Source: an uncultured Alphaproteobacteria bacterium
GTDB lineage: Bacteria; Pseudomonadota; Alphaproteobacteria; CAAHEQ01; UBA3637
Direction of reading: 5' to 3'
Length of the DNA stretch: 64,000 nucleotides
Assembly: GCA_944393195.1 (NCBI GenBank)
Contig: CALXZG010000004.1
Location: forward strand, 5,028-69,027
Shown: positions 9,258 to 28,549 of the stretch, one piece after another
Position numbering within the stretch: the stretch's first letter is position 1
Layout: each line of letters opens with the position of its first letter
Translations under genes and position numbers: made by a program
Notes under the pieces: model-generated
What the model saw: only the letters and a program-made list of their open reading frames with translations
The model's database searches: none
What the model was told of the DNA's origin: nothing

Positions 9258-10276
9258 CAGGATTGGCAAAACGGCGGTGGCAACAATTTCGGGCAAATCG
9301 ACTGGCGTATCGTTCATTGCTTGTTTTTATCGGCATGCTATTGGTTTCTGTATTGGCGCCGATCTTGGCGAATGATAAGCCGTTAATTGTTCGGTATCAG
9401 GATACTGTTTATTTTCCGGTTGTTGAGGTTGTTTGGGATAATCAATTGGGCGGTTCTTTACCAACGGAAGCGGATTATCATGATCCGGATACGCGGCGAC
9501 AAATACGGCAAAACGGATGGATGATTATGCCGCCGATACCGTGGTCATACGATACGATTGATTTTGAAGCGACGGGTGTTTTTCCGGGAGCTCCTGACCG
9601 GCGGCATTGGTTGGGGACGGATGATCAGGGACGGGATATTCTGGCACGATTATTGTACGGGTTACGGTTAAGTTTGGTGTTCGGCCTGATTTTAACGGTT
9701 TGTTCGGCCGGTATCGGTATTTTTGTCGGGGCCGTTCAGGGGTATTTCGGCGGTAAAACGGATTTGTTTTTAGGTCGGTTGTTGGAAATGTGGGGATCGT
9801 TGCCGCAGTTGTTTATTTTAATTATTGTATCCAGTTTAATTGTCCCGGGATTTGGAACGTTATTGGGCGTTTTGTTGTTTTTCAGTTGGACAACATTGGT
9901 TCCAGTTGTGCGGGCGGAGTTTTTAAGAACGCGTCATTTGGAGTATGTTCAGGCGGCGCGGGTATTGGGGGTATCCGATCGCGTCATTATGTTTCGACAT
10001 ATTTTACCGAATGCATTGGTGGCGACAATTGCCTATTTGCCGTTTATGATGTCGGGGGCGGTTGTGGCTTTGTCCGCTTTGGATTTTTTAGGATTGGGTT
10101 TGCCGCCGGGCACACCGAGCCTGGGGGATATGATTCGGCAGGGCAAGGAAAATTTACAGGCACCGTGGATCGGTGTGACGATTTTTGTCACGTTGACGGC
10201 GGTTTTATCGGCTTTGTTGTTTATCGGGGAAGGGGTACGGGATGCGTTTGATCCGCATCGGGAGGTGCGCTCATGA
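9254..10276 (+). CDS. yejE: ABC transporter permease YejE-like
   Basis: ATGA overlap with yejB. HWLGTDDQGRDILARLLYG motif typical of DppC/YejE-type permeases. Multiple TM segments. Confidence 0.8.
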   Translation: MTGLAKRRWQQFRANRLAYRSLLVFIGMLLVSVLAPILANDKPLIVRYQDTVYFPVVEVVWDNQLGGSLPTEADYHDPDTRRQIRQNGWMIMPPIPWSYDTIDFEATGVFPGAPDRRHWLGTDDQGRDILARLLYGLRLSLVFGLILTVCSAGIGIFVGAVQGYFGGKTDLFLGRLLEMWGSLPQLFILIIVSSLIVPGFGTLLGVLLFFSWTTLVPVVRAEFLRTRHLEYVQAARVLGVSDRVIMFRHILPNALVATIAYLPFMMSGAVVALSALDFLGLGLPPGTPSLGDMIRQGKENLQAPWIGVTIFVTLTAVLSALLFIGEGVRDAFDPHREVRS

Positions 10277-11775
10277 ATTTATTAGCATTACAAAAGGTGT
10301 CCGTCCGATTGTCCCGGTTTCGACCGGTGCGGGGTATTTCCGTTGCCGTTAAAAAAGGGGAGTTTGTCGGCTTGGTCGGTGCCAGCGGATCGGGTAAGTC
10401 GACAGCGGCTATGGCGATTTTACGATTACAGGATCAAGCGCGATACAGCGGTCGGATTTTATTTCGGGGACGGGATTTGTTGGCTTTGTCGGAAAAGGAA
10501 ATGCAACGTATTCGCGGGCGGCGGATTGCCATGATTTTTCAAGAACCGATGACAAGTTTAAATCCTTTGCATACCGTCGGGCGGCAGATCGGAGAAGTTT
10601 TGCGGTTGCATATCGGAAAAGTGTCGCGCCAACGGATTATGCAATTGTTACAATTGGTCGAATTATCCGATGGTGATCGGATATATCGGTCGTATCCGCA
10701 TGAACTATCGGGCGGACAGCGGCAACGGGTTATGATTGCAATGGCTTTGGCCGGTAAGCCGGATTTGTTAATCGCGGATGAACCGACAACGGCCTTGGAT
10801 GTGACGGTACAGGCTCAGATTTTGAGGTTGTTAAAAAAGTTACAAAAGAAAATGGGGTTGAGTATTTTATTCATTACGCACGATTTATCCATTATTCGCC
10901 GGTTGGCCGATCGGGTATATGTGATGAAGTACGGTAAAATTGCGGCAACGCGCATTCCGCCACCGCCTCCGATTCAACGACGACAAACCTCTGCGGGTGG
11001 AGCGACGGTGTTATCCGTTCGTGAATTGACGGTTCAATATGGGCAAATGACGGCGGCACGGGCGGTTTCTTTTGCGTTAAAAGCCGGTCGGACAACGGCG
11101 ATTGTCGGAGAAAGCGGTTCCGGAAAATCAACCGTGGCCCGCGCGTTGGTTCGGTTGGTACCGGCGATGGGAGAGGTGATATTAAACGGTCGGGATTTTT
11201 GGGCTTTGCGGGGGCGGGAGCTTGTTTCCGCCAGAGCCGGTATGCAAATGGTGTTTCAAGATGCCGGAGCTTCGTTAAATCCGCGTTTATCCGTTGGTCA
11301 GTTGATTGCCGAAGGGTGGTCTTTATTACATCGCGGTTCGGCCGAAAGAGCGGTGGCAGAGGCTTTGCAGGCCGTTGGTCTTGATCCGGAAATAATGGGA
11401 CGCTATCCGCATGAATTATCGGGCGGACAACGGACGCGAGTTGCTTTGGCACGGGCTTTAATCATGCGGCCGTCGGTGTTGATTTTGGATGAAGTGACTT
11501 CGTCATTGGATATTCGGACGCAACAGCAGATAATGGATTTATTGAATCGGTTGCAGGCGGAGTTGGGGTTGGCGTATCTTTTTATTTCACATGATATGCG
11601 GGCGGTACGCGCCATGGCCGATGATGTTTTGGTCATGCGGCGGGGCGATGTTGTGGAAGCCGGTTCGGCCGATCAGGTGTTTCAATGTCCGCGTCATACG
11701 TATACACGTCAATTGTTGGCGGACAGTTTTTGGGATGACGGGGCGGAGACGTCTTCCTATAATTCACGACCGTGA
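10273..11775 (+). CDS. yejF: ABC transporter ATP-binding protein with duplicated ATPase domains (YejF-like)
   Basis: Two Walker A motifs (GASGSGKST, GESGSGKST), two LSGGQR signatures and two Walker B motifs. Overlaps the yejE stop. Confidence 0.85.
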   Translation: MNLLALQKVSVRLSRFRPVRGISVAVKKGEFVGLVGASGSGKSTAAMAILRLQDQARYSGRILFRGRDLLALSEKEMQRIRGRRIAMIFQEPMTSLNPLHTVGRQIGEVLRLHIGKVSRQRIMQLLQLVELSDGDRIYRSYPHELSGGQRQRVMIAMALAGKPDLLIADEPTTALDVTVQAQILRLLKKLQKKMGLSILFITHDLSIIRRLADRVYVMKYGKIAATRIPPPPPIQRRQTSAGGATVLSVRELTVQYGQMTAARAVSFALKAGRTTAIVGESGSGKSTVARALVRLVPAMGEVILNGRDFWALRGRELVSARAGMQMVFQDAGASLNPRLSVGQLIAEGWSLLHRGSAERAVAEALQAVGLDPEIMGRYPHELSGGQRTRVALARALIMRPSVLILDEVTSSLDIRTQQQIMDLLNRLQAELGLAYLFISHDMRAVRAMADDVLVMRRGDVVEAGSADQVFQCPRHTYTRQLLADSFWDDGAETSSYNSRP

Positions 11776-12422
11776 CGGCGCAACCAGATTTCGGCATCGG
11801 CCCGTCGGTCGGTCAGGCGGGCCACAACGCGCCAGAAACGGTCGCTATGGTTCATTTCCTGTAAATGGGCGACTTCGTGTGCAATAATATAATCCAATAC
11901 AAACAGCGGGGCGAATCCCAACCGCCAACAAAAATTCAGGTTGCCTTTGGCGGAACAACTGCCCCAACGGGAGGTTGTGTCTTTCAGATGAATATCCCGA
12001 AACGAAACGCCGATTTCAGCGGCTAAATCGCGGGCTTTTGTTGTGATATAGGCACGGGTTTGGCGTTTGACGAAATCCGTTATGCGGCGCGTCAGGAAAT
12101 CGACTTCACCGGAGACAAAAAGGGTATTATCCCGAATGAAAACACCGCGGCGCAAGGTAGGATCGTGTCGAATGGTCAGGTCTTGGCCCAAGATACGGAT
12201 GGTATCGCCGTTTTGCCATCGGGTGGGGGAGGGCAGACGGTTTAATTGATCGGCAATCCATTCCTGATGTTCGTCCAAAAAAGATTGGGCCTGTCGTCGG
12301 GTACAAAACAAAGGAAGAGAGAGAACAACCCTGCCTTTGCGGTCAACACGCAACCGCAGATATCGCGATAAACGATTCCGGCGAACAAGGATGTTTTTTG
12401 CTTGACAGGATAATGGTTTCAT
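11757..12422 (-). CDS. M48/DUF45 family metal-dependent hydrolase (YgjP-like)
   Basis: HEVAHLQEMNHSDRFW zinc-binding motif near the C-terminus. Its 3' end overlaps the yejF 3' end by 19 nt (convergent). Confidence 0.75.
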   Translation of the reverse strand: MKPLSCQAKNILVRRNRLSRYLRLRVDRKGRVVLSLPLFCTRRQAQSFLDEHQEWIADQLNRLPSPTRWQNGDTIRILGQDLTIRHDPTLRRGVFIRDNTLFVSGEVDFLTRRITDFVKRQTRAYITTKARDLAAEIGVSFRDIHLKDTTSRWGSCSAKGNLNFCWRLGFAPLFVLDYIIAHEVAHLQEMNHSDRFWRVVARLTDRRADAEIWLRRHGREL

Positions 12423-12458: not shown

Positions 12459-12767
12459 ATGGAATTTATCGGACGTTTAGTAAAATTGGTTATTCGATTG
12501 GCTATTTATGCCGTGGTGTTTGCTGCGTTTGCGTGGTTATTGTTGGATATCGGACCGGCCGAAACATGGCAGCGGTCGGTTGAAAACCTCGGCAATATCG
12601 GTGCGCGGATCAGCGGTGCCGCCAGTACGACGGTAAAAACGGCCGGAGATATGAAAGATGTGGCCGGGTATCATCTGCGGGAGGCGGCCGATCGGATTGA
12701 GGGGAAAGATCCGTATGAGGATTTTGCCCGTAGTTTGGATGCCCGTATTCAACAGGATCTACAATAA
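12459..12767 (+). CDS. Small membrane-anchored hypothetical protein
   Basis: RBS aaaggagaa upstream. N-terminal TM (LAIYAVVFAAFAWLLLDI). No recognisable family. Confidence 0.4.
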   Translation: MEFIGRLVKLVIRLAIYAVVFAAFAWLLLDIGPAETWQRSVENLGNIGARISGAASTTVKTAGDMKDVAGYHLREAADRIEGKDPYEDFARSLDARIQQDLQ

Positions 12768-12840: not shown

Positions 12841-13359
12841 ATGGGAGAAACTTCGGCCGGCGGGCGTTATTTATATATCATGCGCCATGGTGCCGCAGAA
12901 ACGGACAGCGGTGTTTTGAATGATTTTAATCGACCCTTGTCCCATCGGGGTGTTCAAGAAACCATTCGTTTGATTGAGTTGATGCAACAAAAAAAGTTGC
13001 GGGTACCGGATTGTGTGTTATGTTCGACGGCTTTACGGGCTAGACAAACGGTTGAGCTTGTCCGCCGATTATTTCCCGAGGCGCCGATTTTGTATCGGGA
13101 TGCGTTATATTTGGCCCCTGTTTTTCGGTTATTAAACACGTTAAATGAGCTGGACAGCATTTTTGAAACGGTTATGATTGTCGGTCATCATCCGGGATTA
13201 GAACAGACGATTGCTTATTTGGCAGAACCGCGGGAATCACCCGTTTTAAAACCGTCGGATTGTGTTGTTATGCACCTGCCGTATGCGGGCGGGTGGCATT
13301 CATTATCGCCGGGAACGGGAGAATTGCGCCTTTTTTTAAATCAGGCAGGGTTAAAATAG
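12841..13359 (+). CDS. sixA: Histidine phosphatase superfamily protein (SixA-like phosphohistidine phosphatase)
   Basis: LYIMRHGAAE (RHG motif), CSTALRARQT and VGHHPGL motifs. Size ~170 aa. Confidence 0.7.
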   Translation: MGETSAGGRYLYIMRHGAAETDSGVLNDFNRPLSHRGVQETIRLIELMQQKKLRVPDCVLCSTALRARQTVELVRRLFPEAPILYRDALYLAPVFRLLNTLNELDSIFETVMIVGHHPGLEQTIAYLAEPRESPVLKPSDCVVMHLPYAGGWHSLSPGTGELRLFLNQAGLK

Positions 13360-13391: not shown

Positions 13392-15262
13392 GTGGTACAA
13401 AAAAGGCAGAAAGGCGGTCACATGAAACAGGAAACAGGCGTATCGACTAAACGAAAGCGGAAGTTGGATGTGGTGGTGGAAAGTGTTGAGCCTTTGAACG
13501 AGGCGCAACAAGATAAGCTTTATCAGAAATTAAAGCAGGCTTTTCCCTATCATGCCGTTCAGATGAAGTTGGCATTAAATCCGGATTTATTGGGGGGAAT
13601 TTCCGTTAAAATGGGATCCATGTTGTTGGATGGCTCTATTCGGGGACAGTTGCGGCAATTTCAACGTGAAATCGAATCGTATCGGGCTCCGGTATCGAAT
13701 ATACAGGGATTGACCGATCTGTTTACCGAAAAAATTGCTTCTTTTCAAGGGCGACCGGTTTTAACCGAAGTCGGGGAAGTTGTTTCTGTATCGGATGGAG
13801 TGGCCAAGGTGACAGGCCTGCAATCTTTGGCGGCCGGTGAACAGGTTGTGTTTGCTTCGGGGGCAGTGGGAATGGCTTTGAACCTGAACCCGGAGGATGC
13901 GGATGTGGCGGTTTTTGAAAAGGCCGATACGATTCGGGAGGGTGATCATGCGTATCGAACGGGGCGTGCGAACACGGTTCCGGTCGGCGTGTCTTTGGTT
14001 GGGCGTGTTATCAATCCGTTGGGACAGCCGTTGGATGATAAGGCCCCTTTGGATCAATTGGAACAACGTCCCGTCAACGTGCCGGCACCCGGGATTGTTG
14101 ATCGTGAAAGTGTGCGACGGCCGGTTCAGACGGGAATTAAGGCGATTGATGCTCTGGTACCGATCGGATGCGGTCAGCGTGAATTAATCATCGGGGATCG
14201 CCAGACGGGAAAGACAACATTAATTATCGATACGATTATCAGTCAACGTTCCCATAATGAAAAGAGCATCGGTTTAAAAGATAAAATTTTTTGTGTTTAT
14301 GTGGCAATAGGGCAAAAGCAATCGACGGTTCGGGAGGTTATGCGAACGCTGCAAAAATATGGAGCAATGGATTACACGGTTATTGTGTCGGCAACGGCTT
14401 CGGACAGTGCCGTGATGCAATATTTGGCCCCGTATGCGGGATGTGCGGTCGGGGAATATTTTCGGGATAACGGAATGCATGCGATTGTCTTTTATGATGA
14501 TTTAAGTAAGCATGCGGTGGCCTATCGGGAAATGTCTTTGTTATTGAAACGACCGTCGGGACGAGAGGCTTTTCCGGGGGATGTTTTTTATTTACATTCA
14601 CGGTTATTGGAGCGGGCGGCCCAGATGAGTACGGAAAAAGGGGGCGGATCATTGACGGCAATTCCGGTTGTGGAAACGCAGGAGGGGGATGTGTCGGCCT
14701 ATATTCCGACGAATGTTATTTCGATTACAGACGGGCAGATTTTTTTGGAAAGTACGTTATTCCATCAAGGTGTCCGGCCGGCCGTCAATGTCGGGTTGTC
14801 GGTCAGTCGTGTCGGTTCAGCGGCTCAGGCACCGGCCATGAAAAAAGTATCGGCATCGTTAAAGTTGGAGTTGGCGCAATATCGTGAGGTGTTGACGTTT
14901 GCGCAGTTATCATCCGATTTGGATACGGCTACACAGGCGTTATTGGCGCGGGGTGCGCGGTTAACGGAAGTCATGAAGCAAAAGCCGTATCGGCCGTTGA
15001 CAATGGCGCAGGAGGTTGTATCTTTATTTGTCGGAACGCATGGCTTTTTGGATGATATTGAGGTTCCCGAGATTACCGTCTTTCTGCAAGGGCTTTTGGA
15101 TCGGTTACGGTTACAGGGGGCGGATATATTGGCCGATATAGAAAAAAGCGGTGCGTTAACGGATGAAACGGCGAATCGGTTGACGGCTTTTGTTCAAAAA
15201 TACGGTGAATCGTATCGGGCACAGGCGGAAATGGCGGCGGATGATCAGGCGGGACAGGCGGC

Positions 15263-15266
<4 letters not shown>
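13392..15266 (+). CDS. atpA: F1 ATP synthase alpha subunit with an N-terminal fusion of a delta (OSCP) C-terminal segment
   Basis: Residues ~25-95 (LDVVVESVEPLNEAQQ...LNPDLLGGISVKMGSMLLDGSIRGQLRQF) parallel the C-terminal ~70 aa of bacterial delta. From ~aa 100 onward it is canonical alpha (VSVSDGVAKVTGL, Walker A GDRQTGKTT). An alternative ATG start lies at 13422. Confidence 0.85.
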
Positions 15267-18211
<2,945 letters not shown>

Positions 18212-18334
18212 CGGGTTATGGTTGTTCGTCTGATTGATGTAAATGGGTTGGTCGGCGGCGGTATAGTACATCATGGGGCGACGACCGGCAGCAAAGAGGA
18301 CGGGGGTATGCCGTCGATCGTCGGGCGTCAATAA

Positions 18335-18535
18335 TCAGGCGTTGGCGGGTTTCGCATTACCGACATTTAACGCCAGGATATCAATTCCTTTTTTGATGGT
18401 GGATAAGACGGTGTCGTCTTTTTTCGTCGGGGTCAGAGCGCTGAGAGCACTGGCACCGCTGATAATCGATGAAATGGCAATTAAGATATCGTTCCAGGAT
18501 GAGATGATAAAATCCAGCATGGTGTTTCCTTTCAT
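18335..18535 (-). CDS. Small phage membrane protein (holin/lysis accessory candidate)
   Basis: 66 aa with one TM (ILIAISSIISGASALSAL) followed by TPTKKDD, a pattern I associate with small phage membrane proteins. Overlaps the upstream gene stop. Confidence 0.45.
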   Translation of the reverse strand: MKGNTMLDFIISSWNDILIAISSIISGASALSALTPTKKDDTVLSTIKKGIDILALNVGNAKPANA

Positions 18536-18837
18536 TTTAAAATTAAGTTAAAAAAAGCGGCACTGAGAGCCGTTACGGTTGTCAGGGCAATCATCCCCGC
18601 AACGGCTTTAATCGGTGCCAATTCCGACCGCGGCATATATTCTTTGGCCAGACGATCGTGAATGGTTTGACAGGTGCTTTTATGTTGGACACTTCCCATG
18701 AAATTTAATAATTCTTCATGCACGTCGGCAATTTGTTTTTTGCTTTGGGAAATATCCTTTTTAATTTCGGTCAATTGTTTTTGCAGGGTTTCAACCTGTC
18801 CCATCAATTTACCGATTTCCATGACAAGTGTCGGCAT
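18532..18837 (-). CDS. Phage lysis-module protein, coiled-coil with C-terminal TM (holin/spanin-like candidate)
   Basis: 101 aa. N-terminal coiled-coil text and a C-terminal TM (AVAGMIALTTVTALSAAFFNLIL). Sits directly downstream of the endolysin. Confidence 0.4.
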   Translation of the reverse strand: MPTLVMEIGKLMGQVETLQKQLTEIKKDISQSKKQIADVHEELLNFMGSVQHKSTCQTIHDRLAKEYMPRSELAPIKAVAGMIALTTVTALSAAFFNLILK

Positions 18838-18847
18838 GAGTCCTCCT

Positions 18848-19258
18848 TTATAAACAGGTATAAAATAAACGATTCCCGATTTGTGCGCAGGGAATCAAGG
18901 CCGAGGCCCAGCGCGGATTCGTATCCAAAGAATGATAGTGTGTTGCGCCTTTGACCGTATCCGGCAGCAAGCCTTTAACAGCGCGGGTGGCGACGCGGCG
19001 GCAAATGGCAAAAACGGCATCGGAGGACAAATCAGCCGTCATTAATTGTCGGGTCGCTTCGGCCGTTTTCCAACACGAAAACTGAAACGGTTTTCGGCAG
19101 ACTTCCGATATGGTGGTACCCAGCCCGGCGGTTTGTCCGCTTCGGGTATATCGGATACGGTTCATAATGACGGAGGCGACGGCTTCAATACCGGGTAAGC
19201 CTTCATCATGAGCCTCTCCGTACAAGGTGCGGGCTAAAATATTTGTTTCGTAATCCAT
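18848..19258 (-). CDS. Cell wall hydrolase, SleB/Hydrolase_2-type (phage endolysin)
   Basis: ARTLYGEAHDEGLPGIEAVASVIMNR motif characteristic of the SleB-like hydrolase family. Confidence 0.75.
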   Translation of the reverse strand: MDYETNILARTLYGEAHDEGLPGIEAVASVIMNRIRYTRSGQTAGLGTTISEVCRKPFQFSCWKTAEATRQLMTADLSSDAVFAICRRVATRAVKGLLPDTVKGATHYHSLDTNPRWASALIPCAQIGNRLFYTCL

Positions 19259-19259
19259 G

Positions 19260-20672
19260 TTAGAATCTCCATTCCAAATGTTGTTTAACGGGGTGGGTGG
19301 CCATTCGTTTTAAGCGAACGGGTTCGCACAATAAACAGCCGGCTAAGGCATCCAGACCGTCATCATGTGTATTGCCGGCGATGGTAAAATCCGTCATTTC
19401 CTGTAATAACGGTGTTTGTTTCAGGGCGGATCGGATAAACAGGCTGCCGTTCATCAGGGGTGCGTCGAGGGCGGATAGAATCCGGCGAGCTTTGTTTTGG
19501 CGGGCGGTTTCTTCAATGACGGCACAGGCTGTGCGGGTTCGGGCCAGTTCCTGACGCAACAGGGCGGGCAGAAATTTACCGATTCCGTTGGTTTCCAAAT
19601 GAATGGCCGGAACGAAGCAGTCGGTAATCAACTCCCGAACGCGGGCGCATTGCCAGGCTGTTGCTTCCTGTCCCGACGGAACGGTTAGGTAATCCAGTCG
19701 GTGTAGGTAAATATTGCCTTCGTCATCAAAAAAGGTACAGGCAACAACGCTTTTGTCCCCGTCGGGTGATCCGAAAGCCGGATCCCACCAACAAGATACG
19801 CCGCGCATTTGTTTGTCGTTCAGGGTCAGAATGCCTTGTCCGTTGGCCTCCCGATAGGACAGATCGCCGCTGTAATAGCGCAGGCGATTGATATCCAATC
19901 GCGTGTCGCCAAGGGAAACGGGTTCCAGCATCATTTGACTGCGGAATTTATTCGGACCGGAGCGTTGGCGGAGCGCTTGGATACGGTTCAGGTTGAATCG
20001 TTCCGGCCAATTGGATTGCCCGTCGGGTGTCAGCAGCGGAAGGCGCAAGGTTGGCCAGTCGGCTAAAAATCCGTCCGGAGCGGATTGATAAATCGTATCC
20101 GCCGCATGGGGTGTTCCGATATACAGTATCAGGCCGCCCGGTGTCAGAATATAATCCAGTTCGGATAATTTTTGGCGCAGATCCCGCCGTTTTTTGGGGG
20201 TGTCGCATGTTTTGGGAACTTCGACATCATCGCACAGGATAATATCGGCACGGCAGCCGGTCATATTGGCGGTCAAACCGCGCGCCAAAACGGACGGATC
20301 GCGCATACCGCCGGTTCGTCGGACGGTAAAGCGGTCAGAGGCCCATTCTTCGGGCGTGTCCGGTTTCAGGCGTTGTGTCAACGGGTGGCGTTCAATAATT
20401 TGTTTAATGTGGTGAACCATTTTTTTAGCCAGCATGTGGTCGGCCGATAAGATCAAAATCCGAGTATCGGGATGTGTATACAAAAGCCATGCCCCGAACA
20501 AGCCGACCAGTGTGGATTTGCCCGAGTTCCGGAATGCCATCAATAAACCGCGCCGATGATCGGGGTGATCGTGAATGGCCTGTAAAAAACGGGCTATTCG
20601 AATATGATGGCGGGGTAGGGAGAGGCCTTGAATCTGATCCCAAATCCAAATAAATTCAATCAAAGAAAGCAT
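19260..20672 (-). CDS. terL: Phage terminase large subunit
   Basis: Walker A-like FRNSGKSTLV, Walker B ILCDDVE, and a C-terminal RNaseH-like nuclease text (WWDPAFGSPDGDKS, HLETNGIG, DDGLDAL). Confidence 0.8.
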   Translation of the reverse strand: MLSLIEFIWIWDQIQGLSLPRHHIRIARFLQAIHDHPDHRRGLLMAFRNSGKSTLVGLFGAWLLYTHPDTRILILSADHMLAKKMVHHIKQIIERHPLTQRLKPDTPEEWASDRFTVRRTGGMRDPSVLARGLTANMTGCRADIILCDDVEVPKTCDTPKKRRDLRQKLSELDYILTPGGLILYIGTPHAADTIYQSAPDGFLADWPTLRLPLLTPDGQSNWPERFNLNRIQALRQRSGPNKFRSQMMLEPVSLGDTRLDINRLRYYSGDLSYREANGQGILTLNDKQMRGVSCWWDPAFGSPDGDKSVVACTFFDDEGNIYLHRLDYLTVPSGQEATAWQCARVRELITDCFVPAIHLETNGIGKFLPALLRQELARTRTACAVIEETARQNKARRILSALDAPLMNGSLFIRSALKQTPLLQEMTDFTIAGNTHDDGLDALAGCLLCEPVRLKRMATHPVKQHLEWRF

Positions 20673-20964
20673 TGTCGGTCCATTCCTCGGTCGGTAATTG
20701 TTTCAGGGCATCACGGGCTTTGCTCAGCCAATCGATAGCGGTATCGTTTGTTTTATCTTTGGATAAGCGGGGTGTTGTTTGTATCAGCTTGACCAACAAA
20801 GCAATATGCAGTAAGGCCGATTTACAGGCATTATGCCAAGCCGTAAAGCCTTTGGCATCGGTCGGGATGTCGCCCTGTTCAAATGTTTGATAAGAAGACA
20901 GGGCGCGTTGTAAGTCCCGAACCAAATGTTCAGATAAGTCCGGAAAAGTGGGATTATCTGACAT
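20656..20964 (-). CDS. Small phage protein in terminase-small-subunit position
   Basis: 102 aa. Overlaps the terL start by 17 nt. Same position as gp18 in T7-like genomes. No motif recognised. Confidence 0.3.
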   Translation of the reverse strand: MSDNPTFPDLSEHLVRDLQRALSSYQTFEQGDIPTDAKGFTAWHNACKSALLHIALLVKLIQTTPRLSKDKTNDTAIDWLSKARDALKQLPTEEWTDNAFFD

Positions 20965-20973
20965 GGGTATCTC

Positions 20974-21450
20974 CTATTTGATCATGGTTCGGCCGGCTTG
21001 TGTTCCCAAAGAGGTCAATGTATCGAACGCATTGGCGGTTTGTTTGTTGCGTAATTCCTGCATTTTGAGCAGGTTCAGGGTGTTATTTTTGTTAATGCCG
21101 TTCAATAACGATTCCAAAGAAATATTGGCTTGTTCCACCAAATATTTATCTTCGATATCGTGTTCGCGTTGCATATTGTCCAAGACCGCCTGAGCGGAAC
21201 CGGATTGACTGCTCATACCGCCGGCACCAAGCCGTGCTTTATAGGCCGATTGTTGTTGTGCCAACAGGTTACGGTTTTTGCGTTGTTGTTGTTCCAATGC
21301 CAATTTTGTTTGGGCAACGTTCAAATCGTATTCTTTTTGGGCGGCGGCTTTGGCGGCTTTGGCCTGTTTTTTTTGATTGTCGATTGATTTTTTGGTATAA
21401 AAGGCCGAACTGACAAGTGAGACGGCTGCGATGATTGGGGCTGCTTCCAT
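20974..21450 (-). CDS. Phage Q/A/K-rich coiled-coil protein with N-terminal hydrophobic segment (internal virion protein candidate)
   Basis: N-terminal MEAAPIIAAVSLVSSAF then a long Q/K/A-rich helix. Sits after the gp12-like gene, where T7 encodes gp13/gp14. Confidence 0.3.
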   Translation of the reverse strand: MEAAPIIAAVSLVSSAFYTKKSIDNQKKQAKAAKAAAQKEYDLNVAQTKLALEQQQRKNRNLLAQQQSAYKARLGAGGMSSQSGSAQAVLDNMQREHDIEDKYLVEQANISLESLLNGINKNNTLNLLKMQELRNKQTANAFDTLTSLGTQAGRTMIK

Positions 21451-21451
21451 A

Positions 21452-23371
21452 TTATCCTCCTATTTGTATATCACTGGTGACACTGACAAGTTTAAATGGT
21501 TTGGGGGTATCCCCTTGAATACGCCACAAGGGTTGAACCGGTGATCTGTTCCAACCGAGTGAGCGTACGACAATATCCGTTGTTTTGGTTTCGGGAATGC
21601 TGTCCAGTTTGTATGAGGCCAGCGGGCGGGTCATTTCTTGGTGTAAGCCGGTGCCGGTATCGATTTCCAACGATGCGGTATCGACGACACGGAAAGAGGC
21701 TTTGACAAGGCGTGCCGACGAAACGGGAGCTGCCCCGTTGCTGGCTCCGACAAGAGGCGGCAGCGGGATGACGATGTGTGTGTAGGCCAACCCGACTTCA
21801 ACCGTTGTTGCCGGATAATCCAGTGTGATTTGTCCGTTCGTCACGATTTTATCCGGTACGGTAATGTTATCCGCCGTTATTTTAACGGTGCGGCCTTCCA
21901 ACATATCCAAGCCCGAAAAGACCGTTTGCGGCGTATCGGTCGTTAAACGGACGGCACAATCGGTGTGATAGTCTTCATTCAACTGTTCCAGAAAGAACGT
22001 GTCGTCGCGGCGAATCAAAAAGTATGTTTTTGTACCGCTGACGGCAACGGATGTGAACAGGCCGTCGGTATACATACGCGTCCAACTTTGCAGGTCTTCG
22101 GAACGAAAACTTGTCAAAACGCTGATGGTGCCGTCGGCCATGATGATATACGCTTTACGATTTTGTTTGTCGTAGGCTTGATCAATCGGTGTGTTGATCA
22201 GATGACCGGCCAACAGAGATAGGTCGGTTGCCTGATACGCTTGTTCGATATCGGCAAATAAAAATTCGCGGATTTCGTGACCGTTGGCGGCCGGAAAAAT
22301 AGTGGCTCCGTCGATACCGACAGGCGGGACAAAGCGGGTATCCGTTGAACCGACCTGCGTTTGTCTTTTTAACTGAATATTGCTTGGCGTCAGGGGATCG
22401 CCGGAAACCATCCACTCGGCACTTGTCGTAAAAACCTGTAAGTGGCGGCCGGCAAACAGAGCGCAAATCGCGTTGGATTGGTCCGACAGGATGTTAAAAT
22501 CAATCCCTTCGGCATCGTATCCCGATCCTAATTCAAAATTGGAAAGGTCTCCGCTTTGACTGAACCACAGGCGATTCGGGAGTGATGCGCTCCCGCCGAA
22601 AACCAGACGGGATTGATAAAACGCGACGCAGGTCGGCCAACCGTAATCGTCGTCAAAGGCGGGTTCTCCCCAACTGCGTGTCGGTTCCAATTTTGTGCTG
22701 TCATCGCCGTCGGTAATCAATTGTTTTAAGACGGTTCCCGTGGCTTCTTTGGCACTGTTAATTGTTTCGATTTCAACGTATCCGTCCCCGATTTTAAATT
22801 GCCGCCCGATATGTTTTTCCTTAAAAACGTCGGATGAGGCGGTTAAGGTTACGGATCCGCCGAGACCGGAAGAGGCGATTGTTGTTTCATCGCTGCTGAA
22901 TTTATGGTACGGTTGTCGAATACATTTATCTTCGGTCAGGAAAACAAATGCGGACAGGGACCATCCGTCACTCGTTTTTACCAATTTTTGCGGGGCAACA
23001 TTGGGGTGTGTCAAATACAGGGCGTCGGTTCCTTGTGCCCACCGAACGGCGTTGATTTGGTCAGAGGACCAAGGGGATTTCAACGTTGTGATAAGGGTTG
23101 CATCCTGATAAATCAACAATTTTTTATCTTGTAAAATAACAAGGTAGGCATCCGATGAACTTTGTTCGTAGGCGATTAAACGACCTCCGTCGGGAATGGT
23201 TGTCAGGTATTTCAAACCGGGGCGGCGATAAATGCCGCCGGTGGGTTGAATAAATACGTTTTGAAGTGCCAAGGCGCCGTTGTTATAGGACACCAAATCG
23301 ACACGGCCGAGTAAATCATGTGACAATTCACCGGCCGTAAAATTTGTTTTGGTTGTAAACAGGTTTGTCAT
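21452..23371 (-). CDS. Large phage tail protein (tail tubular protein B/nozzle-like by position)
   Basis: 639 aa, beta-rich. ATGA overlap with the upstream gp11-like gene. Position equivalent to T7 gp12. Confidence 0.5.
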   Translation of the reverse strand: MTNLFTTKTNFTAGELSHDLLGRVDLVSYNNGALALQNVFIQPTGGIYRRPGLKYLTTIPDGGRLIAYEQSSSDAYLVILQDKKLLIYQDATLITTLKSPWSSDQINAVRWAQGTDALYLTHPNVAPQKLVKTSDGWSLSAFVFLTEDKCIRQPYHKFSSDETTIASSGLGGSVTLTASSDVFKEKHIGRQFKIGDGYVEIETINSAKEATGTVLKQLITDGDDSTKLEPTRSWGEPAFDDDYGWPTCVAFYQSRLVFGGSASLPNRLWFSQSGDLSNFELGSGYDAEGIDFNILSDQSNAICALFAGRHLQVFTTSAEWMVSGDPLTPSNIQLKRQTQVGSTDTRFVPPVGIDGATIFPAANGHEIREFLFADIEQAYQATDLSLLAGHLINTPIDQAYDKQNRKAYIIMADGTISVLTSFRSEDLQSWTRMYTDGLFTSVAVSGTKTYFLIRRDDTFFLEQLNEDYHTDCAVRLTTDTPQTVFSGLDMLEGRTVKITADNITVPDKIVTNGQITLDYPATTVEVGLAYTHIVIPLPPLVGASNGAAPVSSARLVKASFRVVDTASLEIDTGTGLHQEMTRPLASYKLDSIPETKTTDIVVRSLGWNRSPVQPLWRIQGDTPKPFKLVSVTSDIQIGG

Positions 23372-23937
23372 GAACGTACCTCAATCAAAGAGAAATCTTG
23401 AAATGCCCGGGGGATAATTTGTTGACTGTCGATTAAGCGTGCTGTTTTCAGGTCTTCTTCGGCTATTTTGCGCAAATAATCGGTTCGGGTTGTACTTTCC
23501 GTCAACGGTAGGCAGAATTCGGCGGCCAGACGGCTGATAAGGGCTTGCGTAAAAAAGGGCGGAAAGGTGGATTCATCCGGTCGGGCAATATATGTCAGGA
23601 TGACATTTTCCTGATTACAATGCAGTTGGTTTTGAAATAGGCGGTAGATAAGGCCGCTGCTCCTGACCGATGAACCGGCGGATAAAATACGGACACAGTC
23701 TTTGGGAAGAGCGTACGCGTATTGATATTCGGTGGCCGGTGTGGTTGCCAATCGGGCCAATGATACCTGTGATAATGCAAAACGCCAGGGGTATGAGGCC
23801 AACAATGCGTTAAGTGTCGGATCGTACAGTTGTTCCGCGATGTGGGCTTCGGTGGTTTCTTCCTCAAATGAAGAAATGCTGTCAGCCCCTAATTTGACTA
23901 AGGCCCGAGAACAAAGGCCGGTAGCTGTAAAAGTCAT
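23368..23937 (-). CDS. Tail tubular protein A / head-tail adaptor (T7 gp11-like)
   Basis: 189 aa. The N-terminal pattern ALVKLGADSISSFEE...LNALLASYPWRFAL parallels T7 gp11 ILASIGEPPVSTLEG...IQSRGWTFN (from memory). Correct size and position. Confidence 0.55.
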   Translation of the reverse strand: MTFTATGLCSRALVKLGADSISSFEEETTEAHIAEQLYDPTLNALLASYPWRFALSQVSLARLATTPATEYQYAYALPKDCVRILSAGSSVRSSGLIYRLFQNQLHCNQENVILTYIARPDESTFPPFFTQALISRLAAEFCLPLTESTTRTDYLRKIAEEDLKTARLIDSQQIIPRAFQDFSLIEVRS

Positions 23938-23954
23938 GTCAAATACTCCTGTTT

Positions 23955-23990
23955 AAAAAAGAAAAGAAGAGGGACGGCGAACCGTCCCCC
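23955..23990 (-). terminator. Intrinsic terminator immediately downstream of the capsid gene
   Basis: gggacgg-cgaa-ccgtccc hairpin. On the minus strand it is followed by a T-rich run (tcttcttttctttttt). Confidence 0.6.
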
Positions 23991-24013
23991 GCTAAACGCA
24001 TGATCGTCGGATA

Positions 24014-24859
24014 TTAAGCCGTCATTGCCGTGTCCAAACATTCCATTTTGACGACACCTTTATCATCGATTAAGCAAGCGCCCTGACTCATCATATTACT
24101 GACAAAGTGGGCGGCGTAATCTCCGTGCCATGAAATATCCGTTTTGATGTCTTGACCACAGGCATGGCCGACGGCTGTTTTGTGATAGATAAAGCATGTG
24201 TGTGTGGTATCCGTTTTCGGTAAGCCCGTGTGCATGATCCACACAATGCCCATCCATTTCCGGCTTTCGGAACCGGTCAACATCGGGTATGTTTCACCGA
24301 CATAATTGGCGGACGAAAATTCTTCAATGGACAACAATTGATTCCATTGCGCCGGGGAAACAAGGGCGTAGCGTTCCCCGTCATCCGGTACATCGTTGTT
24401 GTTTAACAGAGTAAAGGCTTCTAAAATACGGGATTTTGTTAACGGTTCCGTCGATTCTCCGACCGTTTGCGTGGCCGTTTTTAACGCGTCGATAATCAAT
24501 TCATCCGTTTTGCGACCGAGTGCGTAAGCCCCGGCGGCGGCCAAAGCTTTCCGTTCATCGTGGCCGGTCTTCAATTCATCCAACGAATCGACCCATTCAC
24601 CGGCGTAGTAATCGGTCAGCGAGCATTCGACCGGCACGTGCGTGACACTGGACGGTGTGATTTGTTGATTCCGCGTTTTAGTTTGTGCGGACATGGCACC
24701 GATGACTTGGAATGTCGTGGAGGCACCTTTAACGTTGTTTTTCGAGCGAACCGTATTTTTTAATTTAGACCCTTGTTGTTGATAGGCGGTATGGACATCC
24801 GCTTCAAAATGTTTCATAAAAGAAGCGCTAATCGTTGTATTTTCTGTTTCTGTAGACAT
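24014..24859 (-). CDS. Major capsid protein candidate
   Basis: 281 aa. Sits after the scaffold-like gene and is preceded by a strong RBS (aaaggaat). Followed by a terminator, as with T7 gene 10. No family motif recalled with certainty. Confidence 0.55.
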   Translation of the reverse strand: MSTETENTTISASFMKHFEADVHTAYQQQGSKLKNTVRSKNNVKGASTTFQVIGAMSAQTKTRNQQITPSSVTHVPVECSLTDYYAGEWVDSLDELKTGHDERKALAAAGAYALGRKTDELIIDALKTATQTVGESTEPLTKSRILEAFTLLNNNDVPDDGERYALVSPAQWNQLLSIEEFSSANYVGETYPMLTGSESRKWMGIVWIMHTGLPKTDTTHTCFIYHKTAVGHACGQDIKTDISWHGDYAAHFVSNMMSQGACLIDDKGVVKMECLDTAMTA

Positions 24860-25004
24860 GTATATTCCTTTCTGTCAATATGGTGATTAAGAAAAAGGGG
24901 TGGACGGTTCCAGAAATTTTCTGCCGTTATACCCCCGTTGGGAATCGATAGATTCCCAGGTGGTATCGGGTAGGCCCAAAGGGTTATCTGCCGATGGAAA
25001 GAGT

Positions 25005-25739
25005 TTAACCGTAGAGGCGTTTAAAGCCGTTTTCGATACGTTTCGTCAGTTCGGGATCCTGATATTTCCAATATTTCGGATCTTGCATAAGGCGCCGTAA
25101 AACTTCCTCGCTGTCGGGCGGGGTGGCTTCCCGACGGGAAGGCAAAACATCGGCTTCGCGGCGACCGTTCATCATACGGTATAAGGCCATAATCCCGTCT
25201 TTATGGGAGGCAAGCAGGTCGAAAACGGATTTGTCCAGATTCTTTTCTCCCCAAGCCGATATTTGACGGGCAATGGTATTGAACTGTTCCGGTCCGCCGA
25301 ATTCCTGTTCCAATGCTTGTAAATCCCGTTCGGCCTGATAATCCATGGAAAGGGATTGCAATATCGGAATGATTTTTTCGGCAGCCAGATCATAAATGCC
25401 TTGAACCTGTTCGTTGGTACAACCCAGATCGAACAACCGTTGGTTAACATCCGCATCAATTTTCATCAGGTTGTTGGGCAGGGTAATTTGGTATTCTGCC
25501 GGAGAAGCCGGGCGATCGGCTATCGGTTGAACGGATGGGCGGGTACTCATTTTCTTTTCCAGGGCCAGATACGACTTAACCAAGTCAGCCCAGTTGACAT
25601 CACCCGTTTCAGGATTGATGAATTTATCAGGAACCATATCCAAGACAGCGGCGAGATTTTGGGCAGCAGAAGTTTCATTGTCAGCCTCCGGTTGATAAGC
25701 GTTTTCGTTTTTTTGAGTCATTTGATTTTTGGGATTCAT
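25005..25739 (-). CDS. Scaffolding protein candidate
   Basis: Start set at ATG 25739 (RBS aaaggaaat upstream). Acidic, helical, 244 aa, between portal and capsid. The longer ORF to 26015 overlaps two upstream genes and is rejected. Confidence 0.5.
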   Translation of the reverse strand: MNPKNQMTQKNENAYQPEADNETSAAQNLAAVLDMVPDKFINPETGDVNWADLVKSYLALEKKMSTRPSVQPIADRPASPAEYQITLPNNLMKIDADVNQRLFDLGCTNEQVQGIYDLAAEKIIPILQSLSMDYQAERDLQALEQEFGGPEQFNTIARQISAWGEKNLDKSVFDLLASHKDGIMALYRMMNGRREADVLPSRREATPPDSEEVLRRLMQDPKYWKYQDPELTKRIENGFKRLYG

Positions 25740-25741
25740 GA

Positions 25742-25939
25742 TTATTTCCTTTCTTGTTGACCTTGTTGAATCAGGTTGAGTATTTGGTTGACCAAAGCAC
25801 GTTGGCCTTCCAAAAAGCGTAGTTCGGCATCGGTTGCGTCCGGCATCAGAACGCGTTCCATTGTTCGGTGTTTCAGCCAGGCGATAACCTCCGCTCCTTC
25901 GGGGCGGCCGAACAATCGGGCAAAGGCGGCGGGAATCAT
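25742..25939 (-). CDS. Small phage protein, unknown function
   Basis: 65 aa. ATGA overlap with the portal stop, and its own stop lies 2 nt before the scaffold start. Confidence 0.4.
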   Translation of the reverse strand: MIPAAFARLFGRPEGAEVIAWLKHRTMERVLMPDATDAELRFLEGQRALVNQILNLIQQGQQERK

Positions 25940-27426
25940 CGGCCGACTCCTTGCAAGGCGGGCAATATCGATGTGTTGAGCGGAACAGCCTCACGGATGA
26001 TATTTTCCGGTACATTGAGTTTACACCCCAGCCATTTTACAAAGCCGCCGATGTCGACATGTTGCAGGCCGGCTTCCCCCAATTTTATGATGGATGACAG
26101 CCACAAGAGGGCGTTGTTGGCGTCAATTTGCGCCTGCTTTTCCGCCCGTGTGGATTTATAGCTGACTTTTAATAATCGGCCATCTACAAAAATTTCGGGA
26201 ATTTCACCACGCTTACGCAGTAAATTGACGGCTCTTTCAATCAGAGGCATTAAAAGCTCTGTTTGCAGGCGGCCGTACGTCGCCCCCAAAATTCGCATCA
26301 TTTCATCCGATCTTTCCAGAACTTCGGTCGCCGTCATGTTGGGGGATTTAATTTCGCCCAGACGATCGCCCAACAAGGCATGTTGAATGCGTTTGCGCAA
26401 ATCTTCGATCATCAGTTGCGAAACATCAAACTTGCCGGGGGCTTCCAATGGCGTTAAGCCTTTGGATCCCATGGCTTTCGGAATGATGGCGCCCGGGGTT
26501 AGGTGAATGTTTGCCGGATTCAAAACCCCGTCATCTTCCGCCAACCAAATACCGGTAACGGCAATGGAGGCATTTTTCAGAATCAGCTCGACAACTTTAT
26601 TGGCGGTTTTAATGTCGGGCAATGCTTTCATGACGGGGGAACGGCCATAGACCTCCCCGGGTGCTTTGAGCCAGCGGAACGAAATAAACGGTGAGGTTTC
26701 GAAAAAAGCCTCTTTTAACACGCTATCCGTGCCGTTTAGGGAATCATGCTGGCTATCGGGATGCAGAAATGCCGTGTAGGTATAGCCACCTTTCGGGGCG
26801 GGAGTGACGGCTTCAATAACGGTGACGGTTTTGTCCTGTGTCGGTTTGTCTTTTTCCGGTATGGTCGCTTGCGGGAAACGGGCGCGCAAGGTATCGGTAT
26901 CCATTTGCGATTCACGGAACGTTGTATCTAAACGACCGGAAGGACCTTCCGCCAAATATACTTCGGATAACGGAATCGCCGTAAAGCGAAAGGCCGACGG
27001 GGCGCCGAGAGGGGCCTCTTCAAACAACAAACAGGCTGTTCCGGCCGTGATTAAATCCAAATAACATTGATGTACTTCCAAAGCGAAGTTGGATCGGTCA
27101 AAGTTAGTTTGCAGTGCTTCGGAAATGGTGTTGAGCGTCGGTGCGATTTGGTCGCTTTCTTCGGCAGATAAATCACTCCCGGCCGTTAATTGAAACCACC
27201 GCATCCAAGGCGGTGTCATTTCCGATAAAATCAGAGCAGCTAATTGATCGACGCTGTCCGGTGCTGTACCGTCGAACAAATGGTCAATCGGTGAATGCGT
27301 CGGGTTAAACATACTTTCCCGATGCGGCAACGCGTATTCATAGCATTCCTGCCATGGTGTTTCCCAGCCGCTACGTGCCGATTTGGCTTTTTGAAAGCGG
27401 TGGTACAGAGTTTGAATATCCGTCAT
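25936..27426 (-). CDS. Portal (head-to-tail connector) protein, T7 gp8-like
   Basis: 496 aa. The N-terminal text LYHRFQKAKSARSGWETPWQECYEYALPHRE resembles the podovirus head-tail connector family as I remember it. First gene of the structural block. Confidence 0.65.
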   Translation of the reverse strand: MTDIQTLYHRFQKAKSARSGWETPWQECYEYALPHRESMFNPTHSPIDHLFDGTAPDSVDQLAALILSEMTPPWMRWFQLTAGSDLSAEESDQIAPTLNTISEALQTNFDRSNFALEVHQCYLDLITAGTACLLFEEAPLGAPSAFRFTAIPLSEVYLAEGPSGRLDTTFRESQMDTDTLRARFPQATIPEKDKPTQDKTVTVIEAVTPAPKGGYTYTAFLHPDSQHDSLNGTDSVLKEAFFETSPFISFRWLKAPGEVYGRSPVMKALPDIKTANKVVELILKNASIAVTGIWLAEDDGVLNPANIHLTPGAIIPKAMGSKGLTPLEAPGKFDVSQLMIEDLRKRIQHALLGDRLGEIKSPNMTATEVLERSDEMMRILGATYGRLQTELLMPLIERAVNLLRKRGEIPEIFVDGRLLKVSYKSTRAEKQAQIDANNALLWLSSIIKLGEAGLQHVDIGGFVKWLGCKLNVPENIIREAVPLNTSILPALQGVGR

Positions 27427-27462
27427 GGAGTCTCCTTTAATAAAAATAAACCGAAGGCTAAC

Positions 27463-27495
27463 AACAAAAAAACAGGCCCCGTTGCAGGAGCCTGT
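27463..27495 (-). terminator. Intrinsic terminator between the two early-position genes and the portal gene
   Basis: 9-bp stem (acaggcccc/ggagcctgt, one mismatch) with a 6-nt loop. The minus-strand RNA would end in tttttttgttgtt. Confidence 0.5.
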
Positions 27496-27558
27496 CTGAC
27501 AGAAGATACACTTCCGGTTGTTAACTGAAAATCAATATAGCATACTTTTTTTGAAATG

Positions 27559-27978
27559 TCAAGGATTATTTTCCTTTTTTAGGTTTAAAAATCGAAAAAG
27601 TTGATAAGGAGTCCAAATTCCGGCCCGATTAATGCCTAAAAAACGTTTGACGGTTTCGACGCATGTATAGGGACGGAATTGGGTGTTTGTCAAAGGCGGT
27701 TGCGTGGGTGTCGTTCGGACAAGGCGATAGCCTTTTTGACGTAAAATATCCAAAACGGGTGCGTTTTTCATCATAATTAAATCCGTGAAATGAATCAGCG
27801 GATCAATCAAAAGCCATTCATGTCCATTGCCGATAATTAAGGCACAATGATAGAATCCTTTTTTTAAAAAACGCATCCACCAACGGGTTCGGGTACCGCC
27901 GAAGGCAACGTAAGCAAACGGATAGCGATAGCCGTGTGAAAGTGTTTCCTTCATTCGTTTTTCCTTTGTGTTTTTCAA
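27559..27978 (-). CDS. Hypothetical protein of the phage-like element
   Basis: 139 aa with a conserved-looking core (FYHCALIIGNGHEWLLIDP ... YTCVETVKRFLGI). No family recognised. Confidence 0.35.
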   Translation of the reverse strand: MKNTKEKRMKETLSHGYRYPFAYVAFGGTRTRWWMRFLKKGFYHCALIIGNGHEWLLIDPLIHFTDLIMMKNAPVLDILRQKGYRLVRTTPTQPPLTNTQFRPYTCVETVKRFLGINRAGIWTPYQLFRFLNLKKENNP

Positions 27979-27982
27979 ATGA

Positions 27983-28342
27983 TTAAATTAATCTGACAAT
28001 TCCTTTTTGCCGAAGAATTATGTCCAGAAACCCCATGGCTTCATGCCATAATTCGCAGATGCGGCGGCTGGCGCCGAAATGCGGATGAGGTGGGGCTTGT
28101 TCCGCCCCGTATCGTTGTAAAATACGCATATGATCAGGGTTAATTTTTCCTTTGTTTAATAATTTTTTGACAGCGATAATGATATCTGACGATTCGCAGG
28201 GGCGGGCAATATTCGAATCGCCGCCACGGGCGCGCAAATGGCCCAATTGTTCACATAAACAATACCAGAACCAAGCTTCCTCAGATGATTCAAAAGGCGT
28301 TGTTTCGCGGTTGTCCGTTTGCGTTTGGTATTTATTCCTCAT
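27983..28342 (-). CDS. Hypothetical regulator-position protein of the phage-like element
   Basis: 119 aa. Strong RBS aaaggaggagg. First gene, divergent from the repressor. INPDHMRILQRYG is vaguely sigma-region-4/HTH-like. Confidence 0.3.
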   Translation of the reverse strand: MRNKYQTQTDNRETTPFESSEEAWFWYCLCEQLGHLRARGGDSNIARPCESSDIIIAVKKLLNKGKINPDHMRILQRYGAEQAPPHPHFGASRRICELWHEAMGFLDIILRQKGIVRLI

Positions 28343-28462: not shown

Positions 28463-28549
28463 GATGTACAACTAAAAGGCGCATATCTATGTATGTTAGG
28501 CGGCATTCTTTTTTGTTGCGGCGGAATGTTTGAAAAGAAAGGAAAAACA

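Follow-up and report, generated by a model that had tools for sequence, protein, structure and literature searches.

How is the stator of an F-type ATP synthase built when the part of the delta subunit that binds the peripheral stalk is made as one chain with alpha, so that every alpha copy would carry it? This question is raised by a gene in a 64,000-nucleotide stretch of contig CALXZG010000004.1 (GenBank assembly GCA_944393195.1, positions 5,028 to 69,027 of the forward strand) from an uncultured Alphaproteobacteria bacterium; the whole stretch is called the window below. The original prediction, made from the sequence letters, was that the ATP synthase alpha subunit here carries the C-terminal part of delta (OSCP) fused in frame, that no separate atpH exists, and that a puzzle of stoichiometry and stator architecture follows. 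The fusion is genuine and selectively maintained, and is not a sequencing or assembly error. Its likeliest consequence, slightly favoured over all others together, would be an enzyme with more than one peripheral stalk and a raised number of protons per ATP.

As had been predicted, an open reading frame (ORF) on the plus strand at 13392..15266, open over 624 codons from a GTG, lies ahead of atpG, atpD and atpC. An ATG at 13422, chosen by gene callers for the identical protein in three public assemblies, is the likelier start and gives a protein of 614 aa. Residue numbers of domains refer to the 624-aa frame (GTG at 13392), while those aligned with the PDB chain 9jc1_I refer to the 614-aa protein (ATG at 13422). 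The gene is divided as follows.

13422..15266, plus strand: delta(deltaN)-alpha fusion gene (atpH'-atpA), 614 aa; ORF scan, Pfam, NCBIfam and public gene calls.
13449..13670, plus strand: delta/OSCP C-terminal domain, b-subunit-binding, residues 20-93; PF00213, AlphaFold2 (AF2) model, alignment with 6n2y_I, and the ratio of nonsynonymous to synonymous substitution rates (dN/dS).
13671..13703, plus strand: delta-alpha junction of about 10 residues, free of stops and of a conserved internal Met.
13704..15212, plus strand: complete F1 alpha; TIGR00962, PF02874, PF00006 and PF00306.
15213..15263, plus strand: alpha tail of about 17 residues, unconserved in the clade.

The delta part had been read by eye at about residues 25-95, and the profile search places it almost exactly there. 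In a Pfam search, OSCP (PF00213) matches residues 20-93 with an E-value of 3.5e-17 (63.4 bits against a cutoff of 22.3), some 10-19 residues from the start of the ORF, and the match, at profile positions 98-171 of 172, is confined to the C-terminal domain. Nothing in the fusion ORF matches profile positions 1-97, the N-terminal helical bundle of delta, whose loss had also been proposed. A custom delta hidden Markov model (HMM), made from 19 full-length deltas, agrees: it matches the fusion only at HMM positions 103-178 of 182. The module aligns with residues 110-176 of the Bacillus PS3 delta (6n2y_I), and the first 123 aa alone score 59.8 with the delta family TIGR01145 against the equivalog cutoff of 57.5. 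In the AF2 model the delta module has a predicted local distance difference test score (pLDDT) of 81-89 and the topology strand-helix-three strands-helix, in agreement with the four-stranded sheet and two helices described for the delta C-domain (PMC12002316).

The last approximately 75 residues of delta are thus followed, after about 10 residues and without a stop, by the fifth residue of a canonical alpha; the stretch of the window protein that spans the junction reads ...QREIESYRAPVSNIQGLTDLF..., and the junction-spanning peptide of the fusion is …LRQFQREIESYRAPVSNIQGLTDLFTEK…. The Pfam domains ATP-synt_ab_N, ATP-synt_ab and ATP-synt_ab_C come after OSCP, and residues 105-607 match positions 5-500 of 503 of TIGR00962 (atpA) with 714.5 bits against a cutoff of 484.45. 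The alpha part comprises the N-terminal helix, the beta-barrel, the nucleotide-binding domain with the Walker A motif GDRQTGKT, and the C-terminal helical domain, and it shows 56-58% identity to mitochondrial and Paracoccus alpha subunits, which are among its best PDB matches. The profile match stops at residue 607, leaving the acidic, Ala-rich tail of approximately 17 residues to which attention had been drawn; the tail is real, but as it is short and unconserved, it is probably unimportant. Two other identities were considered and rejected. The gene does not belong to an alternate F1F0 enzyme (N-ATPase), as it scores 539 bits with TIGR03324 against a cutoff of 750.5 and the operon order is also not of that type; nor is it a b-delta fusion of the mycobacterial type, as the ORF has no ATP-synt_B domain and the partner of delta is alpha.

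Could the fusion be an artefact of assembly or annotation, or a pseudogene, with an overlooked stop or frameshift dividing a short atpH from atpA? One related sequence, a 1.6-kb contig (L036), has the delta and alpha parts in different frames; the frameshift there is most likely an assembly error. The fusion itself is not confined to the window. Among the 120 best clusters of a protein database clustered at 90% identity, drawn from NCBI, ENA, JGI and Logan assemblies, 118 share OSCP and the three alpha domains in this order, with lengths of 561-638 aa and identities of 59-100%. In one scan of GTDB species representatives, the single-ORF fusion was found in 34 metagenome-assembled genomes (MAGs) labelled "Alphaproteobacteria bacterium" from the gut or rumen, with human, rabbit, roe deer, sheep and water buffalo as hosts. 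Furthermore, both parts are under constraint. In nine pairs compared by the Nei-Gojobori method, dN/dS is 0.02-0.12 for the delta module, 0-0.39 for the junction with the alpha N-terminal helix, and 0.01-0.04 for alpha, values from which the delta module is judged to be under purifying selection. The delta signature LLGG...D.S..G.L..F is invariant in the clade alignment, as is the Walker A motif. Because the same architecture occurs in more than 100 independent assemblies, the artefact reading is refuted, and it keeps a merely nominal probability.

Some entries met in these searches are set apart. Locus L055 has an ORF of fusion-like length, but a separate delta lies there in another frame, and it was not counted as a fusion. 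In some members the alpha C-terminus shows weak matches resembling the delta N-domain, but their domain E-values are 74 or more and they are noise. A 790-aa entry labelled as Toxocara canis mitochondrial alpha (P0009) contains an internal duplication of about 280 residues, which looks like a gene-model or assembly artefact unrelated to the fusion.

A genuine ORF may still yield two proteins. If the polyprotein were cleaved, or if translation also began inside it, a free delta C-domain and an ordinary alpha would result and the 1:3 stoichiometry would be restored. Nothing supports this directly, although the AF2 model shows the junction as a short segment outside any helix. In an alignment of 16 diverse members, the delta C-domain, the junction and the alpha N-terminus are ungapped, so that junction length is strictly conserved, and no conserved Met, start codon or ribosome-binding site is found at the junction. 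The window protein itself has no Met between residues 66 and 151 in the 614-aa numbering. A free delta C-domain would, moreover, have no anchor on F1 once the N-domain is gone. Such a separation is therefore considered very improbable.

The position of the fusion tells of its origin. In a neighbour-joining tree of the alpha core, a quick distance tree, the window gene and those of all 34 MAGs form one clade, sister to ordinary alphaproteobacterial alphas (L034, L052, L053, L041 and others). In the nearest fusion-free relatives, a complete atpH stands as a gene of its own immediately ahead of atpA; in three of them (L034, L052 and L053) the gene upstream of atpH is priA-like, as judged by a look at the sequence alone. 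The fusion occupies the exact atpH slot of the atpHAGDC operon, and we infer that the ancestor of the clade lost, in place, the 5' half of atpH together with the atpH/atpA boundary. By this event the b-binding C-domain of delta would have become the N-terminus of every alpha.

The fusion arose, as far as can be read from the sequences, at least twice. Five Firmicutes loci from genomes of Ruminococcaceae, Oscillospiraceae and Clostridia, namely L047 (Ruminococcaceae YRB3002), L050, L057, L071 (Oscillospiraceae) and L079, also encode an alpha fused to the delta C-domain only, at about 9500-11900 of the loci (2222-3991 in L079), and in the alpha tree they cluster by themselves. L047, L050 and, by family name only, L057 and L071 are taken to be gut or rumen organisms. 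That gut anaerobes acquired the fusion at least twice, in separate lineages, points to a benefit and not to chance. The Firmicutes fusions differ in the junction: while about 10 residues separate delta from alpha in the window clade, an acidic linker of about 40-55 residues is found in four of the five, and L079 has an insertion inside the delta module instead.

These loci also bear on whether the window organism has a normal delta gene at another place in its genome, the fused C-domain being an accessory or regulatory appendage and not the stator link. No other delta was found with the custom HMM among ORFs of at least 40 aa in the 64-kb window, and no gene for a delta N-terminal domain within 10 kb on either side of the fusion in the 34 related genomes; within this scope the predicted absence of a separate atpH holds. 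As the inspected DNA consists of these regions, a distant copy is conceivable. However, the fusion fills the very slot in which the nearest fusion-free relatives have their full atpH, and the Firmicutes fusions stand in contiguous a-c-b-fusion-gamma-beta-epsilon operons that have no delta gene (the a, c and b genes of L047 were confirmed by Pfam). These operons are otherwise complete, showing that a separate delta gene can be missing from an F-type operon that has the fusion. A further case is Acidaminococcus fermentans, where the only delta sequence of the atp operon is the fused, N-terminally truncated module (PMC12229609). A delta N-domain on the axis would, besides, clash with the reason to keep three b-binding modules. 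A second, normal delta thus seems improbable, if a little less so than a separation of the two parts at the junction.

What, then, would such an enzyme look like? The original prediction was right to see a stoichiometry puzzle, but an engineered enzyme has already provided an answer. Ueno et al. (Nat Commun 2025; PMC12229609; bioRxiv 10.1101/2024.08.27.609901) reasoned that only one stalk can form because the delta N-domain occupies the pseudo-three-fold axis of alpha3beta3, and engineered a delta(deltaN)-alpha fusion in the FoF1 of Bacillus PS3 (PDB 9jc1) by removing delta residues 2-104 and joining residues 105-178 to the alpha N-terminus via GSGG. The resulting complexes had one, two or three b2 stalks, each canonically bound and each with an a-subunit; the extra stalks arose spontaneously from the normal operon with no other change needed. 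The fusion enzyme reached an H+/ATP ratio of 5.8 and synthesised ATP at a proton-motive force (pmf) at which the wild type fails (PMC12229609).

The window protein is a natural counterpart of this design. Chain I of 9jc1 is the top Foldseek match of the AF2 model, with 580 columns against about 480-520 for ordinary alpha chains, and the only PDB chain collinear with the whole protein. Residues 18-581 are aligned overall, and residues 18-150 without a gap, indicating that the natural junction is as long as the designed GSGG junction; in this respect the window clade stands closer to the engineered protein than the Firmicutes fusions do. In both, the delta C-domain leads straight into the alpha N-terminus. 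The window gene differs from the construct in being natural and alphaproteobacterial, with about 50% identity, and its product presumably pairs with b/b'; epsilon is full length in the window, whereas its C-terminal domain is missing in the PS3 construct.

On this analogy, the covalent link would take over the job of the lost delta N-domain, which normally anchors delta to the alpha N-termini. With the axis-sitting, stalk-limiting domain gone, b/b' could dock on each of the three alphas, more than one stalk could bind and bring its own a-subunit, and the number of protons per ATP would rise. The cell could then make ATP at a low pmf, or spend little ATP on keeping up a modest membrane potential, as would suit an anaerobic, energy-poor gut habitat. 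A multi-stalk enzyme with raised H+/ATP, produced by a selectively maintained fusion, is in our analysis the likeliest mechanism, and we hold it to be somewhat more probable than its alternatives combined.

The chief of these is an enzyme that keeps a single stalk. The tether would simply replace the non-covalent anchoring of delta, one module would bind b/b' while two stay idle, and the number of stalks would depend on how much a and b is available or on the order of assembly, so that H+/ATP would be ordinary. The presence of single-stalk particles in the engineered preparation, which was a mixture (PMC12229609), speaks for such an enzyme. So does the organisation of the genes: a separate alphaproteobacterial F0 operon, as in textbooks, could limit a and b, and no F0 genes are near the fusion. 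Genome streamlining in gut Alphaproteobacteria could also favour the loss of a domain without a gained function (PMC8199421). Extra stalks formed spontaneously in the engineered enzyme, however, and the repeated origin of the fusion in gut anaerobes is not what idle modules would lead one to expect. The b-binding motif is intact and constrained in all three copies, but as one gene encodes them all, this cannot tell which copies serve. A single stalk is therefore regarded as a real alternative, though clearly the less probable one.

Several points weigh against the multi-stalk enzyme. Its assembly by such a fusion is known from the engineered enzyme, and even there, single-stalk particles were part of the mixture. 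The case for stalk number is built from the F1 genes of the clade and the engineered counterpart, and the absence of delta concerns the 64-kb window and the 10-kb flanks of the relatives' fusions. The AF2 model of the whole protein is only moderate, with a mean pLDDT of 71. The anaerobic, low-pmf lifestyle is inferred from habitat. A survey of ruminants, the source of the clade's RGIG MAGs, reports reduced Alphaproteobacteria genomes, of about 1.6 Mb, in the order RF32 (PMC8199421); that the clade is RF32 is a guess, as the survey paper does not place these MAGs.

A second change in F1 travels with the fusion. Every fusion-clade locus encodes a gamma of 340-364 aa, whereas the gamma of fusion-free alphaproteobacterial loci has 289-321 aa. 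The difference is largely made by a clade-specific insertion of about 55 aa, at residues 212-266 (nt 15896-16060) in the window. The alignment with the Paracoccus gamma (5dn6_G) breaks at chain position 198, the place of this insertion, and that with the spinach chloroplast gamma also ends there; we take this to be the point at which the regulatory insertion of chloroplast and cyanobacterial gamma begins. A second insertion, of about 10 residues, is found after helix 1 near residue 65 (15445-15480). Every fusion-clade locus has both insertions, and fusion-free alphaproteobacteria have neither.

The genes around the fusion, all on the plus strand, are as follows.

12459..12767, plus strand: 102-aa protein with one N-terminal transmembrane helix, conserved in clade loci.
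12841..13359, plus strand: histidine-phosphatase His_Phos_1 (sixA-like) gene; PF00300, E-value 5.4e-6.
15263-16333, plus strand: atpG (gamma), 356 aa; PF00231; its start overlaps the atpA stop.
16345-17790, plus strand: atpD (beta), 481 aa; ORF list and public gene calls.
17780-18211, plus strand: atpC (epsilon), 143 aa as called; PF02823.

The 102-aa membrane protein carries the motifs W.LLG..P.E and GKDPYE and has no significant Pfam match. Its gene is found upstream of the fusion on the same strand in 22 related loci, mostly directly upstream, and is absent upstream of atpH in the outgroups without the fusion; that it is an operon-linked accessory protein of the ATP synthase is only a possibility. 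The sixA-like gene stands between it and the fusion, and by synteny is found in only some members of the clade. This gene had been said to end about 30 nt before the ORF, and indeed its end at 13359 is 32 nt before the GTG, though 62 nt before the likelier ATG.

Motif scans of the 64-kb window and of the clade loci for a and c subunit genes were negative; the single match to an a-subunit motif in the window is gamma, a false positive. While the F0 genes are contiguous with F1 in the Firmicutes operons, F1 and F0 operons are usually separate in Alphaproteobacteria, and the lack of a or c in 64 kb fits this usual split. Promoter and terminator scans gave nothing better than shuffled sequence.

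Natural fusions of this kind had been noted in silico by Ueno et al., in A. fermentans (D2RLW6) and in the entries G4Q3K6 and A0A1I2C5T3, and a natural multi-stalk enzyme was considered "highly likely" but was unverified (PMC12229609). A text search of one literature library found no later paper on natural delta(deltaN)-alpha enzymes or on the alphaproteobacterial clade. These published fusions share the architecture of the window gene and the predicted consequence. A. fermentans is an anaerobe and belongs to the Negativicutes, i.e., to another phylum than the window clade. The latter is also distinguished by being large (more than 100 clusters and 34 species representatives) and by its gamma insertion. 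The window fusion likely has an independent origin, because its alpha core groups with Alphaproteobacteria and mitochondria.

Other stators offer partial parallels. The F1Fo of Chloroflexus aurantiacus naturally has two stalks and two a-subunits, and its shortened delta N-domain dimerises (PMC12002316). Like the enzyme proposed for the window, it has more than one peripheral stalk and a-subunit, with a change of the delta N-domain as the enabling feature; unlike in the window, its delta is a separate protein not fused to alpha. The mycobacterial b-delta fusion (PDB 7jg5, chain d) is likewise a fusion of stator subunits involving delta, but its delta, joined to b, occurs in a single copy, keeps the N-domain and serves a single-stalk enzyme, whereas the window delta is fused to alpha and its N-domain is gone. 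In Candidate-phyla-radiation groups (Saccharibacteria, Paceibacterota and Parcubacteria), deltas of 115-129 aa are encoded just upstream of atpA (L043, L048, L049, L072, L073 and L078). They match the delta HMM from about position 60-74 on, indicating that their N-domain is shortened, and in this they recall the two-stalk Chloroflexus enzyme.

There are also deltas with more than one C-domain. A search of a representative library clustered at 50% returned mostly truncated fragments and ordinary deltas, together with proteins in which a delta N-domain is followed by two or three tandem C-terminal b-binding domains (P0127, P0128, P0140 and P0173, of 349-412 aa, and P0130 and P0131); another, P0132, has two delta C-domains and no N-domain. 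In these tandem deltas, Pfam OSCP matches fall in two to three stretches. Judged from their domain content, they may represent another way in which multi-stalk F-ATP synthases arise in nature. Clustering at 50% probably merges full-length fusions with ordinary alphas, and other full-length fusions were hence not mapped in this search.

A wider proposal may be put forward tentatively, as one that is more likely wrong than right. A large gut and rumen clade of Alphaproteobacteria would natively run an F-type ATP synthase of three-fold symmetry, in which as many as three b/b' stalks and three a-subunits would give about two to three times the H+/ATP without a larger c-ring. Its evolution would have been independent of that of the Firmicutes fusions, and probably of those of Acidaminococcus, and it would have co-evolved with the 55-residue gamma insertion and possibly with the small membrane subunit encoded upstream. 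The tandem-C-domain deltas (P0127, P0128, P0140 and P0130) would be a second natural path to this architecture.

Elsewhere in the window, a podovirus-like gene cluster on the minus strand (about 18270-28000) lies directly downstream of atpC, with a Hydrolase_2 lysin, a terminase-like protein of 470 aa, Phage_capsid_2, a Phage_T7_Capsid scaffold and a head-tail connector; an S24 peptidase/LexA-like gene (28493-29185, plus strand) is found beside it. Homologues of the lysin and the terminase-like protein keep the same relative position in six related loci (L001, L002, L012, L016, L024 and L033), the latter with 57-85% identity, which suggests a vertically inherited prophage or an element like a gene transfer agent and not a recent insertion. 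In a block of genes without Pfam matches at 48-58 kb, a 534-aa ORF on the minus strand (about 56340-57940) contains a near-exact direct repeat of a Gly/Pro/Asn-rich segment (GGGGSGGGGPGPAPRGTFGGGSNENNNNNGPKPEPTPPPPSNNETQGGKNPPISNDQHT).

What does the fusion mean for its bearers? The proton-per-ATP ratio sets the lowest membrane potential for ATP synthesis, and before 2025 this ratio was, to our knowledge, thought to vary only via the size of the c-ring. The engineered fusion showed that removal of the delta N-domain and tethering of the C-domain to alpha multiply stalks and a-subunits, leaving its use in nature open, and the natural cases were three accessions, of which only A. fermentans was named. 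Here the same design is found fixed across a whole abundant clade of gut Alphaproteobacteria, in another phylum and with an origin independent of the Firmicutes cases found here. These proteins are labelled "F0F1 ATP synthase subunit alpha" at NCBI; as public labels read only the alpha subunit, the fusion is hidden from metabolic reconstructions. The clade supplies many natural fusion sequences for expression and imaging. It also links the delta(deltaN)-alpha architecture to the energy-limited anaerobic gut, where its enzyme, to judge from the engineered counterpart, may naturally make ATP at low membrane voltage.

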